Part shown: piece after piece, positions 2,156-55,975 of the stretch
Layout: each line of letters opens with the position of its first letter
Position numbering within the stretch: position 1 is the first letter of the stretch
Assembly (NCBI GenBank): GCA_023265685.1
Contig: JAHFSP010000001.1
Coordinates: forward strand, 54,975-118,974
Source of the DNA: Candidatus Woesearchaeota archaeon
GTDB taxonomy: Archaea; Nanobdellota; Nanobdellia; Woesearchaeales; GW2011-AR9
DNA: 64,000 nt
Direction of reading: 5' to 3'
Notes under the pieces: generated by a model
Told to the model about the DNA's origin: nothing
The model's input: only the letters and a program-made list of their open reading frames with translations
Databases searched by the model: none
Translations under genes and position numbers: made by a program

Positions 2156-3661
2156 TTGATGAGCCTTTTGAACATATCTATTCTGAAAACAGATATTCTT
2201 TCGATGCGCGATTTTTCTCGTGAAGAGGTCGAAGAGATTATTCACAAAGCATTAGAATTAAAACGAACTAAAAAAACAAACACGCAAGACCTGAATTCTC
2301 TTAGTCATAATAAAATTCTTGCGTCATTATTTTTTGAGAATTCTACTCGTACACGAGAGAGTCATGAACTTGCGGCTACAAAGTTAGGTATGAACATTAT
2401 AGGGTTTGCGGGAACAGAAGGAACTTCTGTTAAGAAAGGCGAACCTTTGGCAGATACTGCACGTATGTATGCTGGTTTCGAGGCAGATGTGGTGGTCATG
2501 CGACATAATCTTGATGGGGCAGCACGCTTTGTTGCAGATGTGGTGAATGTTCCGGTGATTAACGCAGGTGATGGTGCGAATGCTCATCCAACTCAGACGC
2601 TGCTTGATCTGATGACGATTTTTGAGAAATTTGGGACGATTGATAATTTGAAAATTGCGATGGTGGGGGATCTCAAATATGGCCGCACAGTGCACTCTTT
2701 GTTGCAGGGATTGGCATTGTTTCGCAACGTAGAAATATGGGCTGTCGCACCCCCTGGTTTAGAAATGCCGGCTCATTGTATTGCTGAGTTTGAAGAGCGT
2801 ACTGGTACCAAAATTTTCTATACTCCTCATCTTCAAGAGGTATTGGATAAAGCCCAAGTGTTGTATATGACCAGAATTCAACGCGAACGTTTTCCAACTA
2901 GCGTAGAAGGAGAACATGAATTTAAGAAGGTGAGTGGGATGTATGAATTAACTTCTCAGGTACTCACACGAGCAAATCCTTCATTGTGTGTGATGCATCC
3001 ATTGCCACGCGTTAAACATAAACTTGAGATTAGTCTTGATGTTGATGCATCACCACGTGCATTATATTTTGAACAGGCTCGTAATGGAGTATTTATTCGA
3101 CAAATTTTGATTTCACACCTACTTGGAGTGCAGAAGACTAAAATTGAAAATAAAGAAGAAAATGGATTATGGCGGGAGCGATTTGTGAATGGACAAGATA
3201 AAAAAGAGAGTTATTTGTATCGGCTCGATAACGGCACGTTGATTGATCATCTTGAACCGGGAAAAGGCCCTCTCGTCCACTCTTTATTAGGATTAGAAAG
3301 ACTTCAAACTACAGTTGTTCAAGCTCTTAACATTGCAAGTACAAAATATGGGCGCAAAGATGTGTTAGCAATTCATAATATGCGCCTCACGCCACGTCAA
3401 TTATGGAAAATCGCTTTGGTAAGTGAACGTGCCTCAGTAAATTTTATTGAAGACAAACGAGTGGTTCAGAAGGGAACAGTGATATTGCCACGCGTACTTG
3501 AAAGACTGTTACTGTGCCAAAATGTAAATTGTGTGACTCGACCAGAACATTTTGAACATGCGCCAAGTAAATTTATTGTAGAACAAGATAAACCACTACG
3601 TTTGCGATGTTATTATTGTGAGCGGACATGTGGCCAGGAAGACGTGGAGTTGTTAAAGTAA
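2156..3661 (+). CDS. pyrBI: Aspartate carbamoyltransferase catalytic chain fused to regulatory chain (PyrB-PyrI fusion)
   Basis: The N-terminal ~300 aa carry ATCase motifs (STRTR, HPTQ, HPLP). The C-terminal ~160 aa carry a PyrI-like zinc domain (CxxxxC...CYYCERTC). The true start may be the internal Met at about 2204 (MRDFSREEVEEI). Confidence 0.85.
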   Translation: MMSLLNISILKTDILSMRDFSREEVEEIIHKALELKRTKKTNTQDLNSLSHNKILASLFFENSTRTRESHELAATKLGMNIIGFAGTEGTSVKKGEPLADTARMYAGFEADVVVMRHNLDGAARFVADVVNVPVINAGDGANAHPTQTLLDLMTIFEKFGTIDNLKIAMVGDLKYGRTVHSLLQGLALFRNVEIWAVAPPGLEMPAHCIAEFEERTGTKIFYTPHLQEVLDKAQVLYMTRIQRERFPTSVEGEHEFKKVSGMYELTSQVLTRANPSLCVMHPLPRVKHKLEISLDVDASPRALYFEQARNGVFIRQILISHLLGVQKTKIENKEENGLWRERFVNGQDKKESYLYRLDNGTLIDHLEPGKGPLVHSLLGLERLQTTVVQALNIASTKYGRKDVLAIHNMRLTPRQLWKIALVSERASVNFIEDKRVVQKGTVILPRVLERLLLCQNVNCVTRPEHFEHAPSKFIVEQDKPLRLRCYYCERTCGQEDVELLK

Positions 3662-24349: not shown

Positions 24350-24905
24350 TGTGGGTCTAATACCCCGCAGCTTGCTGCGGTATCTTTAAAGCTCCCCACT
24401 CATTTTTTCTTTTATGCAAGTCCGTCACGCTAGTCATTGTACTTATCGTATTCGCTATCACATTGTTCTCGTCATAAAATATAGAAAGAATCTTCTCACT
24501 TCAGAAGTCTTTGACTTTCTGAAGTTCATTTGTAGAGGTATAGAACAACGGTATTACCTTTACTTTGATGCCATCGGAAGCGATGGCGATCATCTTCATA
24601 TAGTTGTTGAAGGAGCACCCCGTTATGCTCCTTCACGAATACTCCAAATTTGTAAAAGTATTCTTGCCATTCAAATTTTCAAGCAATTTCCAGAATTAAA
24701 AGAGGAACTCTGGGGTGGCGAATTCTGGAGTGATGGTGGACACATTGACACAGTTGGAGACGGGCATGGTTTAGAAGCAGTGAAAAAATATGTGAAGAAT
24801 CAGGGAGGAGATCCAGCTCAACTATCTCTTTATCAATTTGCCGAGGCGTAATACCCCGCAGCTTGCTGCGAAGCGACCGTAGGAAGCGGTGGGATAGCCT
24901 CGGCC
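24350..24905 (+). mobile_element. IS200/IS605-family insertion sequence (TnpA only) with subterminal hairpins
   Basis: A Y1/HUH transposase ORF is flanked by near-identical palindromic motifs taataccccgcagcttgctgcg at 24355-24376 and 24849-24870. A larger right-end stem (gccgaggcg...cgcctcggc, 24841-24901) is also present. Confidence 0.7.
24414..24851 (+). CDS. tnpA: IS200-type transposase TnpA (HUH Y1 transposase)
   Basis: YRIRYHIVLVIKYRKNLL, HUH motif DHLHIVVE, and C-terminal WGGEFWSDGGHIDTVG, all matching IS200 TnpA. Confidence 0.85.
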   Translation: MQVRHASHCTYRIRYHIVLVIKYRKNLLTSEVFDFLKFICRGIEQRYYLYFDAIGSDGDHLHIVVEGAPRYAPSRILQICKSILAIQIFKQFPELKEELWGGEFWSDGGHIDTVGDGHGLEAVKKYVKNQGGDPAQLSLYQFAEA

Positions 24906-24949: not shown

Positions 24950-25636
24950 CTATTTTTTTCCTAGATTTATATCTGGGGTAAGGGGGGTCGTGACTGTGTA
25001 GATAACATCAGGGTTGTCGAAACGTAAGCAGACCAATTCACCTGTGCAAGTGTTTCGATCTTCAGACCTTAATTTTCCATTATCAATAAAGTCAATATTT
25101 TCAACTTTTTCTGAGGAATCGAATGTAGTAATATTGCCAGATACTATTACCTCTTCATTATCGATGTTTCCTGATGTTAATGTTTTTTTAGCTCCATCTC
25201 CTGATAGGTAAAAATCTAATCTGATCTCAGATGCTCTTTCGTCGGAATAAGATATTTTTCTCTTTTCACGTATGGAATTATTGGGATTGTAAGTGGTGGT
25301 GGTTACATCCTTGCTTTTATCTTTTTGGTCTGAGAAAAAAGTTGTTCTTTTAATCTCTCTTTTAAGATCATCGTATTCGATATTAATTATATAAGGGCGA
25401 CCCCCTGCATTTGAGCAATAATTACCAATCTCAGTTTCAATCTGAGAACGAATTGTTCTTCCATCTAAAACACTATCTTTTCTTTTTTTAATACACCGAT
25501 GACGCAATTCTTCTCCCCCATCGTAATGTTCTTGTACACGAGTTTCTAATACGGGAGTTACGACAGTAGGTTTAACTTGTGATGCAGTCGTGCAACTTGT
25601 TACATACAATAATCCCAGTAGAGGTAAGTATCTCAT
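24950..25636 (-). CDS. Lipoprotein-like secreted protein
   Basis: MRYLPLLGLLYVTSC signal/lipobox-like N-terminus. No domain recognised. Confidence 0.5.
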   Translation of the reverse strand: MRYLPLLGLLYVTSCTTASQVKPTVVTPVLETRVQEHYDGGEELRHRCIKKRKDSVLDGRTIRSQIETEIGNYCSNAGGRPYIINIEYDDLKREIKRTTFFSDQKDKSKDVTTTTYNPNNSIREKRKISYSDERASEIRLDFYLSGDGAKKTLTSGNIDNEEVIVSGNITTFDSSEKVENIDFIDNGKLRSEDRNTCTGELVCLRFDNPDVIYTVTTPLTPDINLGKK

Positions 25637-25762
25637 AGTAAAGCTAAATTAGAGAGATCTATTTAAATCTTTCTTATGTTGTCACTATTAAGTTACTAAC
25701 TTATCGTAAGTTTTATAAATAGGGTTGTATTTTAAGCTCTATCTGAAAGGAGGATAATAACA

Positions 25763-26089
25763 ATGACTCAAGAATTTTCAACTCGAAACAAAGTAGCAGT
25801 ATCATTTTCCCGTGCAAAGGATGACATGGTTAATCTCTATGATCATGTCAAGTTTTTGTATCAACAAATCGCTCTCTTACAAAAAGAGTGTGACCGCTTA
25901 CGTTTTATGGTAGGCCATACTAAAGCACCTGCCGACAAGATTCTCGTTGCTTCAGCAAGAGGTAAACGAGTTCACGTTTCTACTTGTCCGTTTATGAAAA
26001 ATGTCAAACGTTCAAGCCGGGTAGTGTTTGTGAGCCTTGATCAAGCTAATTTGAAGGGGTATAAGAATTGCTCGTGTGTGAAAGGATAG
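25763..26089 (+). CDS. Hypothetical small protein with C-terminal Cys cluster
   Basis: 108 aa. C-terminal segment VHVSTCPFMK...KNCSCVKG. Unknown function. Confidence 0.4.
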   Translation: MTQEFSTRNKVAVSFSRAKDDMVNLYDHVKFLYQQIALLQKECDRLRFMVGHTKAPADKILVASARGKRVHVSTCPFMKNVKRSSRVVFVSLDQANLKGYKNCSCVKG

Positions 26090-26093
26090 AAGA

Positions 26094-26717
26094 ATGAACT
26101 TTAATCTAGCTCAATTTTTAGAAACACCTAAATTAAAATATGAATTTCTCCGTCTTGCTCTTGATGGAAGTAGTAGAGATAGAATTTGTTTACAAAATGA
26201 TTTTGACAACTCTTTCGTTTGCTATAATCCTGAAAATGCATGTGCAGCAGATAGAATAATCATGAGTTCTTATCCACTTTTTCATTATCCTTTTGCTTTT
26301 ATGCACACACCACGCTGTGCTGAAACTGATTTTAATGTTGCTGATTTTTTAAATCTTACAAGTTATGAGGAAGATACTCAAGAAAATCTTGGTTTTAAGT
26401 TTGCTCCTTTAGGAGTTGTAGTACGAGAGGCAAGAGATGTGAAAGTTGGAATGAAAGATCACTTACCATTGTTAGTTATTTCATTATATCGTTCTTCAAG
26501 AGACAATCCACTTGATCCAGAACTGATTTGCGATTTACTTCAGGATAAGATTAATGTTCCACCTTCTTATGTTCTGAAGTCGTTGACGCGAGTACACGTT
26601 GTATATGATTTAATTACAAAACGTTTCTCGGGTAATGCTTTTTACACTCCTGCTGGGGCACATAGCAGTGTTCAGTATCCAGCAACGTTTAGAGATGTTT
26701 GTGAGAGAATGAAGTAG
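26094..26717 (+). CDS. Hypothetical protein; its 3' end is duplicated downstream of the TA cassette
   Basis: 207-aa ORF. The last ~80 nt plus ~35 nt of 3' flank recur at 27240..27365. Confidence 0.5.
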   Translation: MNFNLAQFLETPKLKYEFLRLALDGSSRDRICLQNDFDNSFVCYNPENACAADRIIMSSYPLFHYPFAFMHTPRCAETDFNVADFLNLTSYEEDTQENLGFKFAPLGVVVREARDVKVGMKDHLPLLVISLYRSSRDNPLDPELICDLLQDKINVPPSYVLKSLTRVHVVYDLITKRFSGNAFYTPAGAHSSVQYPATFRDVCERMK

Positions 26718-26750
26718 AGGGAGATTAATTTTTTTGAGGTTTGATGAGTT
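26636..26750 (+). repeat. Direct repeat, left copy (3' end of gene 26094..26717 plus flank)
   Basis: About 80% identical to 27240..27365. The two copies bracket the RelE/antitoxin pair. Confidence 0.65.
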
Positions 26751-26777
26751 TTAGTTACAAGATAAGATATAATTTTG

Positions 26778-27032
26778 CTAATAGACTCTTTCTCTGTTAT
26801 CAACTTTTACAACAACAATTCTTTTTTCTTCATGATTAACTCTGTAAAGAGCCCGATAATCGCCTATTCTAATCCTAAATGTTGGTTCACTATAACCCTG
26901 AACTCTCTTTGAATCATGTGGAACCGGATTAAGAGCTAATTCCCCTAGTTTGTTAACAATCCTATCAAAAAGAATCTTTTCACATTTCTTAAGAAACTTA
27001 TCGGCCTGTTTATCAAGCGTTACTTCGAACAT
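26778..27032 (-). CDS. relE: RelE/ParE-superfamily toxin (mRNA interferase)
   Basis: C-terminal RIRIGDYRALYRVNHEEKRIVVVKVDNRERVY is a classic RelE motif. 84 aa. Overlaps the upstream antitoxin ORF by 20 nt. Confidence 0.8.
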   Translation of the reverse strand: MFEVTLDKQADKFLKKCEKILFDRIVNKLGELALNPVPHDSKRVQGYSEPTFRIRIGDYRALYRVNHEEKRIVVVKVDNRERVY

Positions 27033-27213
27033 TCTTAAGTTCCTCTAAAGAAATCAGTTTTCCAGCTTTCTCGTTTACAATACTCTCATCAATAAGTTTT
27101 TTTTCTTCTGCTGTGAGGATCGTATCTACATCTATCATGTGGGCTTTAATGTAATGAAGTTCATCCTTGATGTTCTTGAGTTCATCCATGATTAGTTCAG
27201 TTTCTGTTGCCAT
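27013..27213 (-). CDS. Putative antitoxin of the RelE pair
   Basis: 66-aa acidic helical protein immediately upstream of and overlapping relE. Confidence 0.5.
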   Translation of the reverse strand: MATETELIMDELKNIKDELHYIKAHMIDVDTILTAEEKKLIDESIVNEKAGKLISLEELKNVRSNA

Positions 27214-27239
27214 ATTTCACTGTAAGTAGAGGTAATTTA

Positions 27240-27365
27240 TATGGTTTTTGGCTATTTTCTCCTGCTGGAGCACATAGTAATATTCAATATCCAGCGACAT
27301 TTAGAAATGTTTGTGAAAGAGTAAAGTAGAAAAGAGGGTGAGTTATTTCTGAGGTTTTGAGTTGT
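27240..27365 (+). repeat. Direct repeat, right copy (degenerate copy of 26636..26750)
   Basis: Contains ...tcctgctggagcacatagtaatattcaatatccagcgacatttagaaatgtttgtgaaagagtaaagtag, matching the C-terminal coding sequence and stop of gene 26094..26717. Confidence 0.65.
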
Positions 27366-27519
27366 TATGATTGCTCACTGTTTTCACAGCGTCTCAAGGT
27401 AGTTGTAGAATAATGGAAGAGGATAAATTATTTTTTGAGTATTGGAAAGTAGGGGAAAATGTTGCGCGCGAGAATCTGAAGAGTTGTCCACTTTTTTGAC
27501 AGGCTTCGCCTGTGGCGCT

Positions 27520-28197
27520 CTACTCAGCGCGGATAGACACGACCCGAGCAAAGGAACCGCAGTCGTAGAGGTCGTAATTACCACCGAGGCTCGAATCGTA
27601 TTGATCGTTCACGAAGAGCGCCCTCATTTCACCAACTTGAGGATTGGAAACAAGATGCGTATTCATTGCGGTGTAATTTGAATTTTGTCCTTCCCACTGG
27701 CGATCAACGTAGGGATCAAGTGCATTTCCTCCTGCAAATTGCCAGACTGGGTGGGCTTTTGCTTGAGACTTTGTGAGTGGAGTGTCGTATATCCCGTCTG
27801 CTCTGTTGAATTCTCTGACGTTGACATCGTCAGCGATGAGAGAATCATACTCCATACGAGTGGATGTTTGATTGAATTCTTGTGGTAGGCGTAGTAACGC
27901 ATCGGAGACAAGAGAGATTTTGAAGAGGCCGTTTGGCCCATAGGTGATTGCAGAACAGCTGTCATTCCATTTTTGACCGAGGTCCCAGTTGCCGATACGG
28001 GCGAGCATGTTTTCTTCGACGGTGAGAGGACGGTAGATTGTTTTGCCGTCAAGAACATGAGTAGGGTGTTGTACAGTTCTTCCTGCTTGTTCGTCGGCTT
28101 TGCAGACGTCTTGGAGAGCGTGATAGCCTTGGGCCCAGGTTTTGGTTTGTGGCATGAGCTGAACGGTTTGTCCAGTAAGTTTTTCGAGGAATGACAT
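27520..28197 (-). CDS. Paralog-family protein copy 2 (225 aa)
   Basis: Same family as 1247..1921 and 33230..33910. The 5' ~235 nt are near-identical to copy 3. Confidence 0.8.
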   Translation of the reverse strand: MSFLEKLTGQTVQLMPQTKTWAQGYHALQDVCKADEQAGRTVQHPTHVLDGKTIYRPLTVEENMLARIGNWDLGQKWNDSCSAITYGPNGLFKISLVSDALLRLPQEFNQTSTRMEYDSLIADDVNVREFNRADGIYDTPLTKSQAKAHPVWQFAGGNALDPYVDRQWEGQNSNYTAMNTHLVSNPQVGEMRALFVNDQYDSSLGGNYDLYDCGSFARVVSIRAE

Positions 28198-33229: not shown

Positions 33230-33910
33230 CTAGCGAGCGCGGATGGGCACGACCCGAGCAAAGGAACCGTTGACGTAGGGGTCATAATTCTTACAACCAA
33301 AGTTCGAGCTGTTATGATTGCCCACGCAGAGCGCTCTCGTTTCACCAACTTGAGGATTGGAAAAAAGACATGTGCCCATTGCTGCGTAATCTGAATTTTT
33401 TCCTTGCCACTGGCGTTCAACGTATTGATCAAGTGCATTTCCTGCTGCGAATTGCCAGACTGGATGGGCTTTTGCTTGGGACTTTGTGAGTGGAGTGTCG
33501 TATATCCCGTCTGCTCTGTTGAATTCTCTGACATTGACACCATCAGCGACGAGAGAATCATACCCTATATTGAGAGATAGTTTATTGAAGTCTCGGGGTA
33601 GACGCAGAAGAGCATCAGAGATGAGAGAGATTTTGATACGACCGTTGGGTCCATAGGTGATTGCAGAACAGCTGTCATTCCATTTTTGACCGAGGTCCCA
33701 GTTGCCGATACGGGCGAGCATGTTTTCTTCGACGGTGAGAGGACGGTAGATTGTTTTGCCGTCAAGAACATGAGTAGGGTGTTGTACAGTTCTTCCTGCT
33801 TGTTCGTCGGCTTTGCAGACGTCTTGGAGAGCGTGATAGCCTTGGGCCCAGGTTTTGGTTTGTGGCATGAGCTGAACGGTTTGTCGAGTAAGTGTTTCGA
33901 GAAGTGACAT
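33230..33910 (-). CDS. Paralog-family protein copy 3 (226 aa)
   Basis: Same family as copies 1 and 2. N-terminal half is near-identical to copy 2 at the nucleotide level. Confidence 0.8.
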   Translation of the reverse strand: MSLLETLTRQTVQLMPQTKTWAQGYHALQDVCKADEQAGRTVQHPTHVLDGKTIYRPLTVEENMLARIGNWDLGQKWNDSCSAITYGPNGRIKISLISDALLRLPRDFNKLSLNIGYDSLVADGVNVREFNRADGIYDTPLTKSQAKAHPVWQFAAGNALDQYVERQWQGKNSDYAAMGTCLFSNPQVGETRALCVGNHNSSNFGCKNYDPYVNGSFARVVPIRAR

Positions 33911-40991: not shown

Positions 40992-41103
40992 GCGGATCCG
41001 ATGGGATTTGAACCCACGATCTACAGCTATCGTCGTGAGATGAACTCTACAGCTCTGATCTCAGGTAGAAGGCTGTCGCGCTATCCAGGCTACGCTACGG
41101 ATC
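40992..41103 (-). tRNA. tRNA-Arg (anticodon UCU) with a 37-nt intron at the canonical 37/38 position
   Basis: Hand-folded. Acceptor ggatccg/cggatcc, U8A9, D-arm gcgt-agccuggaua-gcgc, anticodon stem acagc/gctgt, loop cuUCUa, T-arm gtggg-TTCAAAT-cccat. No encoded CCA. T-run follows the 3' end. Confidence 0.8.
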
Positions 41104-41158
41104 CACAAAAGCTTCTTCGTCAGATAACTTTTAAATATTTCGTCTATAAAAATGGTGT

Positions 41159-54943: not shown

Positions 54944-55975
54944 CTAATCTAAATCAATTTCTTCTTCGCGTGCTTCAGCGTCTTCTCTCTGCTTTTCCTC
55001 AAGCTTAAGTGCGGTCTGTTCAGCATAAAAAACAACGGCACGTGTTGCAATCTCTGCTTTAATCTCATCAAGTGTTTTATGTTTGGTAGCAAATCCCGCA
55101 AGCTGTTCCTGTGTAAGTATATCCTTCTTACTCACATACACAAAAATTGGTTTACGCATTCGCAACGTCTTAAACAAACGCTCTTGATTTTCAAAAGGAT
55201 AACCACAATACTCACTAATATCAAAAACATAAATGATTGCCTGCGCAACTTCTTCAAGCACCAATTGGGCCTGCAACTCAATCGTATTCATTTTATCTGG
55301 ACGTGCTAATGTTCCAGGAACATCCAACACTTGAATAATTGCACCATCTTGAGTATAAAATCCCGAATTAATCGTTTTAGTTGTAAACGCGTAGGCTGCG
55401 GTAAGTGCTTTACTAGGAGTCAGCTTATTAAGCAAAGTACTTTTACCAACGTTAGGAAAGCCGTAGATACATACTGTAAACATGTCTGTTTTAATATCAG
55501 GATACGTTCGAAATATTTTACGTGCACTATCTAAGAATAATAGGTGGGGTTCACTACGTTTAATCACTGATGCAATCCGACCATATGTTTCAGTAGAAAT
55601 TGTTTTCATTTCTTCTCGATTAGTGCACTTAAAAATCCGTCGAACTGCATCACGATGCAATTTTTGCATGATTCTGGTTGAATCCACAAGTCCTTTAAGC
55701 GAGCGCTTATATGCTGCCATATCAATTGTCAATTCCATTAATCGCTGGTAGAATGGAGGAAGTGTGTATTCTAAAGGGAAATCCCTGTTCACCCGCTCAA
55801 ATGGCGGCAACAAAGTATCTTTAACAACATCTAATTTAAGTGATTCTTTAATTCGAATTTTCTCAATCCAGCTACCTTGAAGATCTTTCTGTCGACCTTT
55901 CATACGAGCCTTTCGAAAAGAGTTATGAAGAATCTCTTTTACTTTTGGAACTTCTCCAATTTTTTGAAAATTCAT
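54944..55975 (-). CDS. NOG1-family GTPase (Obg/DRG-related ribosome biogenesis GTPase)
   Basis: GFPNVGKSTLLNKL (G1), DVPG (G3), a NOG1-like N-terminal helical region, and an acidic tail. 343 aa. Confidence 0.75.
   Translation of the reverse strand: MNFQKIGEVPKVKEILHNSFRKARMKGRQKDLQGSWIEKIRIKESLKLDVVKDTLLPPFERVNRDFPLEYTLPPFYQRLMELTIDMAAYKRSLKGLVDSTRIMQKLHRDAVRRIFKCTNREEMKTISTETYGRIASVIKRSEPHLLFLDSARKIFRTYPDIKTDMFTVCIYGFPNVGKSTLLNKLTPSKALTAAYAFTTKTINSGFYTQDGAIIQVLDVPGTLARPDKMNTIELQAQLVLEEVAQAIIYVFDISEYCGYPFENQERLFKTLRMRKPIFVYVSKKDILTQEQLAGFATKHKTLDEIKAEIATRAVVFYAEQTALKLEEKQREDAEAREEEIDLD

Follow-up and report, generated by a model that had tools for sequence, protein, structure and literature searches.

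The 64,000-nucleotide (nt) stretch analyzed here, referred to as the window (positions 54,975 to 118,974 of contig JAHFSP010000001.1, assembly GCA_023265685.1, from a Candidatus Woesearchaeota archaeon), carries a small toxin-antitoxin (TA) cassette that lies between two direct copies of the end of a host gene. The host gene is a 207-amino-acid (aa) open reading frame (ORF), p207 (26094 to 26717, plus strand), which has its last 23 codons and stop inside the left copy. It is followed by a gene on the minus strand for an 84-aa RelE/ParE-superfamily toxin (26778 to 27032, Pfam PF05016) and by a second minus-strand ORF for a 66-aa candidate antitoxin (27013 to 27213), which overlaps the toxin start by 20 nt. 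All three sets of gene coordinates agree with the original prediction, which had been made from the letters of the window and had read the arrangement as a footprint of TA mobility.

By its sequence matches, the 84-aa protein is a RelE-type toxin. Residues 5 to 84 of 84 match PF05016 (ParE_toxin) with 38.6 bits against a cutoff of 23 (E = 1.6e-9), and two solved structures are also hit, namely, 1WMI chain A (Pyrococcus horikoshii aRelE; E = 1.9e-6) and 3G5O chain B (Mycobacterium tuberculosis Rv2866; E = 1.4e-4). There are 88 homologues on Nanoarchaeota/Woesearchaeota contigs, many of them at 80 to 88% aa identity, and the closest of them belong to MAGs of these two groups. Across 28 homologues, R80 is invariant and Y84 nearly so, and these residues match R81 and Y87 of Escherichia coli RelE by position only. 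Homology to RelE suggests that the toxin is a ribosome-dependent mRNA endonuclease, which would be neutralized by the product of the upstream antitoxin gene. The arrangement resembles archaeal RelBE (P. horikoshii aRelE-aRelB, 1WMI) both in the toxin match and in the small upstream partner gene that overlaps the toxin start. However, the antitoxin differs from this system in having no detectable similarity to solved antitoxins or Pfam families; searches of Pfam, NCBIfam, and PDB sequences all gave no match. A tblastn match to the antitoxin was nevertheless found just upstream of the toxin in 144 fetched toxin-bearing loci.

The repeat consists of the final 71 nt of the ORFan gene p207 plus 33 nt of flank. 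As had been predicted, copies of roughly 80% identity stand on both sides of the cassette: blastn of the window against itself pairs 26647 to 26750 with 27259 to 27363, both on the plus strand, at 78% identity over 107 to 109 gapped columns (E = 2.6e-17) and finds no third copy in the 64 kb. The left copy comprises the live 3' end of p207 including its stop (26647 to 26717) and a 33-nt flank (26718 to 26750). The right copy comprises a displaced p207-type 3'-end stub of 23 codons plus stop (27259 to 27329) and a 34-nt flank (27330 to 27363). This stub is joined to no gene body, and it retains the coding remnant and stop that had been claimed for it, reading PAGAHSNIQYPATFRNVCERVK before the stop in register with the live PAGAHSSVQYPATFRDVCERMK. 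Positions 26647 to 26718 and 27259 to 27330 form a 72-nt ungapped core at 85% identity. Over the coding part including the stop, 60 of 71 positions are identical and all 11 differences are transitions, and the flanks beyond the stop are alignable with three small gaps.

Identity in the adjacent 40 nt is 10 of 40 positions downstream of the repeat and 17 of 40 upstream (26607 to 26646 versus 27219 to 27258). The repeat had originally been drawn at 26636 to 26750 and 27240 to 27365; its existence stands, but both starts were placed too early, the true ones being 26647 and 27259, and 27214 to 27258 is the promoter region of the cassette. Within the weakly similar upstream sequence, GCTTTTTACA in p207 resembles GGCTATTTT at the cassette edge. 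This likeness may represent an imperfect microhomology of about 9 nt at the promoter-side joint, and it is probably the reason why the repeat was drawn longer. The same repeat and cassette arrangement is present on five of five p207-bearing contigs from several samples (three places are listed: two ENA assemblies and one Logan run; the source samples are SRR14366769 and those sequenced for ERZ27297570 and ERZ27296333), with contig L001 being 100% identical over 1401 nt; therefore, the arrangement is not an assembly artifact.

The cassette itself spans 26751 to 27258, approximately 510 bp, and is made up of a promoter, the antitoxin gene, the toxin gene, and a short tail. The promoter region (27214 to 27258, minus strand) reads AAAATAGCCAAAAACCATATAAAT on the TA strand, with a sequence resembling a transcription factor B recognition element (BRE) at about 27244 to 27252 and a TATA-like sequence at about 27235 to 27243, approximately 26 nt upstream of the antitoxin ATG. 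In alignments, the upstream element AAAATAGCCGAAAACAATATAAAT is conserved among independent loci and resembles an archaeal BRE plus TATA box, and the TA pair would be transcribed from this promoter of its own as a leaderless or near-leaderless mRNA. At the other end, the noncoding tail past the toxin stop (26751 to 26777, minus strand) is conserved with loci L010, L009, and L035, and the conserved tail of independent loci extends 20 to 45 nt beyond the toxin stop.

For about 18 independent close loci (75 to 83% identity), DNA homology to the window begins at 27258 ± 2 and stops between 26736 and 26780. The right repeat starts at 27259, the base next to the cassette edge, and the left repeat ends where the tail starts. 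In alignments, the last 15 nt or so of the left copy (26736 to 26750) pair with the right copy as well as with the L010 and L009 tail, and this overlap is a possible microhomology joint. The same antitoxin-toxin unit occurs at 78 to 83% DNA identity in wholly different neighborhoods, and no sequence related to the repeat was found at the other cassette loci compared. Inside the insert there are just the antitoxin and toxin genes with their promoter and no mobility genes (an IS200-type ORF lies outside it), no integrase was found among the neighboring genes, and the cassette ends carry no terminal inverted repeats. The cassette is a discrete, mobile unit. The proposed footprint of TA mobility is supported by the presence of this unit in many unrelated contexts, by the match between its ends and the inner ends of the repeats, and by the recurrence of the footprint at other loci.

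To describe this recurrence, 160 further loci of toxin relatives were fetched out of approximately 760 detected for the TA family, which gave 105 nonredundant loci with usable flanks. The DNA upstream of the antitoxin was compared with the DNA downstream of the toxin, and repeats with a score of at least 25 were retained. Direct repeats bracket the cassette in 22 of the 105 loci versus inverted repeats in none (700-nt flanks; P = 7e-8). Mismatched flank pairs taken from different loci (n = 600) reached a top score of 19 in a first pass with 300-nt flanks, and pseudo-cassettes of equal size elsewhere in the same loci had repeats in 5 of 126 cases (Fisher P = 5.6e-5 versus 22/105). A strict class was defined by one copy forming the end of an intact host gene and the other lying beyond the cassette as a stub; it holds 8 of 105 loci versus 0 of 126 controls (P = 0.0016). 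A comparison of the 8 loci with the unclassified 5 of 126 controls (P = 0.18) was discarded because those controls had not been sorted by the same criterion, and after sorting none of the 126 was left.

The strict class includes the p207 3' end in the window (104 nt, 78% identity); the first 53 codons of RtcB plus approximately 55 nt upstream in L011 (211 nt, 96%); the last 200 nt of a major facilitator superfamily (MFS) transporter gene, exactly to the stop, in L075 (92%); the 3' ends of genes for a PGF-CTERM surface protein (L045), a PCMT methyltransferase (L058), and proteins of unknown function (L067 and L096); and the 5' end of a TIM-barrel gene (L024). A weaker ninth case, L002/L003, involves 25 nt within the RsmB 3' end. 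The genes hit are unrelated to one another, insertions are found at 5' as well as 3' ends, and the duplications range from 25 to 211 nt in length; therefore, no site-specific integrase or fixed-stagger transposase can be responsible. The stub adjoins the promoter edge, 45 to 65 nt from the antitoxin ATG, in six of the seven loci in which the live copy is on the toxin side.

The L011 locus, which comes from Hainich groundwater well H51, shows the joint and the stub in some detail. A microhomology of 11 to 18 nt, TCAAAAACTCC, is common to its RtcB target and to the cassette tail, which is known independently from L012. We rejected an insertion shared by L011 and L012, which have the same extended tail, because the neighbor of L012 is a NUDIX-like gene; the two insertions are independent. 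The RtcB stub (L011, 3297 to 3470) keeps the upstream region and the start codon, its 53 codons encode the same amino acids as the live copy, and judging from these features it could be expressed as a 57-aa peptide.

Among the remaining repeat-bearing loci, L167, L138, and L137 were left out of the strict class because their repeats are TA pairs in tandem or repeated promoters, L055, L087, and L128 because they carry a Methanosarcina tandem-array element of approximately 165 bp, and about six further loci fall outside these classes. On the Methanosarcina sp. Mfa9 chromosome (L055, 2550 to 6250), a distantly related TA pair is embedded in an array of at least 12 tandem units of approximately 165 bp (ATAACTGTTTTATTATATTTTTCCGCCAGCCAACCGCCCACC...). 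Other short inserts also interrupt this array, and the two further Methanosarcina-type loci have their TA pair flanked by the same element, a pattern unlike that of a gene end with its stub.

We consider it likely that the window holds a footprint of recombinational insertion, left by a mobile TA cassette and including duplication of a gene end. The cassette would have entered the 3' end of p207, leaving approximately 104 nt of gene end plus flank on both sides, such that the left copy completes a working p207 and the right copy persists as a dead stub displaced from its gene. Transposase, integrase, and terminal inverted repeats are all lacking in the cassette, which argues for insertion by host recombination rather than by an enzyme encoded by the element, presumably with the help of short imperfect microhomologies at the joints.

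How the two copies came to differ bears on the way in which the gene end was duplicated. A stub that decays from an initially identical copy would be expected to collect mainly nonsynonymous changes in the reading frame of the host gene. The ratio of nonsynonymous to synonymous differences per site (pN/pS) between live copies and stubs amounts to 0.19 for the window, 0.00 for L011, and 0.10 for L075, and the pooled value is 0.28, or 0.18 without L067. We used a permutation that keeps the substitution spectrum of each locus and scatters the changes over sites with the same base. For the window it gave 5 nonsynonymous differences observed versus 8.3 expected (P = 0.010), and for the pooled loci 46 observed versus 70.8 ± 3.6 expected (P < 0.0002), with seven of nine loci individually showing a nonsynonymous deficit at P < 0.05. 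Under a mixture model in which 23% of changes are assigned to the constrained live copy, the deficit is retained (P = 0.0017, or 3e-5 without L067). In L011, the youngest case, all four coding differences are synonymous and four more are noncoding, leaving no nonsynonymous difference in 52 codons. L067 is the exception (2474 to 2560 versus 3389 to 3475). In this stub of the 3' end of a 430-aa gene, 16 of 17 changes are nonsynonymous, 12 of 13 directional changes are GC>AT, and D, G, and S codons have turned into N, which looks like deamination-type or strongly AT-biased decay. Real decay is therefore recognizable, and the test has power.

Given the synonymous excess, simple neutral decay of a fresh duplication fits poorly. 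The copies behave like alleles, and most of their divergence appears to have arisen while both were parts of working genes. On balance, we lean toward the view that the two copies are diverged working alleles of one gene end that were joined by recombination. Two mechanisms had originally been proposed for the locus; insertion through recombination fits better, and plain target-site duplication followed by decay agrees less well with the small number of nonsynonymous differences in the stub. A related lineage may have supplied a replacement gene end, which arrived with the cassette or was exchanged along with it later. A plausible route would combine homologous pairing within the gene end on one side with an illegitimate or single-crossover (Campbell-type) joint on the other, by which the resident gene end would be pushed to the far side of the insert as a stub.

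Several observations weigh against this interpretation. The window alone contributes only 22 codons to the permutation, a small sample, and 9 of its 11 changes are GC>AT when read from the live copy to the stub, a pattern that decay with an AT bias would give as well. The databases yielded no allele without the cassette (empty site) for p207 or any other affected host gene, and no donor arrangement was found for the window or for L011. In the search for an empty site of L011, the nearest RtcB was 74% identical, and every contig with the exact RtcB carries both cassette and stub. Among 15 billion proteins there was no second p207 lineage, a difficulty for a model with a diverged donor. The microhomology is uneven, with about 15 nt at the tail joint and the longer match in L011 but only the weak, imperfect match of about 9 nt on the promoter side. 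Finally, the cassette acts as a unit with fixed ends, which fits de novo insertion more naturally than the capture of random donor fragments.

The most serious alternative is de novo insertion accompanied by a long duplication of the target, in which a staggered break or template switching would have duplicated 104 nt identically and the right copy would then have decayed. This mode of insertion was described for restriction-modification (RM) gene units, at first in Helicobacter and then in other bacteria, by genome comparison (Nobusato et al. 2000, Gene 259:99; Furuta, Abe & Kobayashi 2010, NAR, PMC2853133). The published RM cases have direct repeats of approximately 30 to 420 bp of local sequence and no mobility genes, and double-strand breakage is suspected (PMC2853133). 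The present locus resembles them in several respects: an addiction-type unit without a mobility gene is flanked by direct repeats of local host sequence of tens to hundreds of bp, repeat length varies between events, and gene ends are often overlapped. The repeats exceed 30 bp, the 104- and 105-nt copies directly adjoin the cassette, and the repeat is unique within the window. In favor of de novo duplication, the cassette ends are fixed, stubs adjoin these ends in several loci, the microhomology at the joints is imperfect, the GC>AT bias in the window points from live copy to stub, and L067 shows that pure decay occurs. The RM precedents also have copies that are nearly identical to each other, at 94 to 100%, and empty sites are available for them (PMC2853133). 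Here, however, no empty site is known, and the copies are 78% identical overall and agree at 60 of 71 coding positions, with divergence that is coding-constrained. The nonsynonymous deficit described above, in the window, in the pooled loci, under the mixture model, and in seven of nine loci, runs counter to decay of an identical copy, as does the complete lack of nonsynonymous differences in L011. No recurrent locus has identical copies, the best being 96%. We regard this alternative as possible but less probable than the joining of diverged alleles.

Fixed cassette ends together with allele-like divergence seem to call for a history in two steps that would reconcile both. A de novo insertion with long target duplication would come first, followed by allele exchange or by the looping out of a circle that contains the cassette and one repeat. 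Such an excised circle could re-integrate when it recombines homologously with the orthologous gene in a relative. Tentatively, and with fairly low confidence, the RelE cassette family could be an integrase-free mobile element of archaea, especially of DPANN archaea, that first enters a gene end with a long, variable duplication by which the gene survives and then moves by a homology-targeted cycle of loop-out and re-integration.

The joining of diverged alleles also has partial counterparts elsewhere. Homology-facilitated illegitimate recombination (HFIR) and Campbell-type integration in naturally transformable bacteria (PMC3240628, PMC3784515) combine a homology anchor on one side with a microhomology joint on the other and need no enzyme from the element. 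A single crossover of a circle with a homologous segment, as in Campbell-type integration, duplicates that segment around the insert. The likeness has limits, in that the anchors here would be just 25 to 211 nt, the donor is hypothetical, and neither process is known to operate in DPANN archaea. In addition, HFIR usually deletes recipient DNA instead of duplicating it. Polymorphic toxin loci and the effector-immunity loci of the type VI secretion system (T6SS), such as those of Vibrio cholerae (PMC5361080), offer another parallel, since an incoming module with a homologous gene end leaves the resident end as a downstream orphan. In those systems, however, the displaced piece belongs to the toxin gene and the arrays grow at one dedicated locus, whereas the insertions here hit unrelated genes, housekeeping or ORFan, and consist of a type II TA pair.

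A different origin of the right copy, as the remnant of a tandem paralogue, is improbable. Under this explanation, the TA cassette would have replaced all but the last 23 codons of a downstream p207 paralogue, and coding-type divergence would be expected from two working paralogues as well. However, it needs two boundary coincidences, namely, flank homology that ends at the tail start and truncation exactly at the promoter edge. There is also no other p207-like sequence in the window, and the same architecture is found at unrelated genes in other genomes, including RtcB and RsmB.

Site-specific systems fare worst. Integron arrays often contain TA cassettes, gene ends are known to be duplicated by integrative elements, and an IS200-type transposase gene lies 1.9 kb away. 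Nevertheless, the notion that the copies are attachment or attC-type sites of an integron-like array, or the marks of a decayed integrative element that brought a replacement gene end, like phages with integration sites in tRNA or protein-coding genes, is very hard to sustain: only two copies exist in 64 kb, each recurrent locus has its own target and duplication length, the other cassette loci lack the repeats, and no integrase was found among the neighboring genes. Elements of the IS200/IS605 type also make no target duplication. More specific candidates were rejected in turn. For integron attC sites, single-stranded DNA folds of both copies and both strands reached -5.3 to -7.3 kcal/mol (z = -0.44 to -0.82), no better than shuffled sequences; an Rfam search at E ≤ 1 gave no match in 26500 to 27500. 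A transposon was rejected on the lack of inverted repeats at the cassette ends, on the 0 of 105 loci with flanking inverted repeats, and on duplications that vary between 25 and 211 nt; an integrase-mediated element, on the lack of a neighboring integrase and the different target gene at each recurrent locus; and a dispersed repeat family, on the presence of just two copies in the window.

Chromosomal TA pairs are patchily distributed and horizontally transferred, usually without mobility genes, and how they move is poorly understood. The window and at least eight parallel archaeal loci provide a concrete, recurring footprint of such movement, one that ties TA mobility to host recombination and not to transposases. 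We found no report of insertion with long target duplication for TA modules in the literature searched, the coverage of which was incomplete. The RM screen kept no archaeal case (PMC2853133), and in a 2013 review the same group attributed this mode to RM units and not to TA modules. The case described here extends the footprint of long target duplication to type II TA modules and to Archaea, with the allele-like stubs as a twist. It also suggests how insertions of this kind survive, as the target gene stays whole thanks to the duplication or the replacement end. With direct repeats on both sides, the insert would be excisable by homologous recombination, which would restore a single intact p207, and this is exactly the loss that an addiction module can penalize; postsegregational killing by the TA pair would oppose it. 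If true, a cycle of excision and re-integration of the RelE cassette would extend the life cycle that Kobayashi proposed for RM units to TA modules and Archaea.

The host gene p207 starts 4 nt past the end of another ORF, p108 (25763 to 26089), and is the last of three consecutive ORFs, p228, p108, and p207 (24950 to 26717; GC content, 0.35), none of which has a Pfam or NCBIfam match. An indexed search and exhaustive HMMER recovered only p207 itself in 5.8e9 clustered proteins and in 1.84e9 representatives. Its sequence composition nonetheless argues that it is a real protein-coding gene: GC content at third codon positions (GC3; 0.13 to 0.30) is lower than overall GC content (0.30 to 0.46), as real coding sequence would show. 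The coding-type conservation of the stub is independent evidence for the same conclusion. Comparing the GC3 of the left copy with that of the rest of p207 did not discriminate which copy is native, as the segment is too short.

Upstream of these ORFs, at 24414 to 24851, lies the ORF for an IS200/IS605-type Y1 transposase (PF01797, E = 1e-28), approximately 1.9 kb from the TA cassette. It is missing from an otherwise colinear ENA contig, in which the SIMPL-domain gene and p228 are 70 nt apart, and by this sequence comparison it is a polymorphic insertion sequence. On the other side, the stub is adjoined by the gene for an unannotated protein of approximately 225 aa (27520 to 28197), which has two paralogues within 33 kb (33230 to 33910 and 1247 to 1921) at 81% and 68% aa identity to it. 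All three are on the minus strand, have a GC content of 0.49 versus 0.39 for the window, and have no Pfam or NCBIfam match. The gene content has an archaeal look, as the window also encodes a Hef nuclease, and L7Ae, S28e, and L24e are encoded on the colinear contig. A 112-nt tRNA gene (40993 to 41104, minus strand), missed by ARAGORN, was found by Rfam with 54 bits; an intron is probably present in it, in keeping with an archaeal genome.

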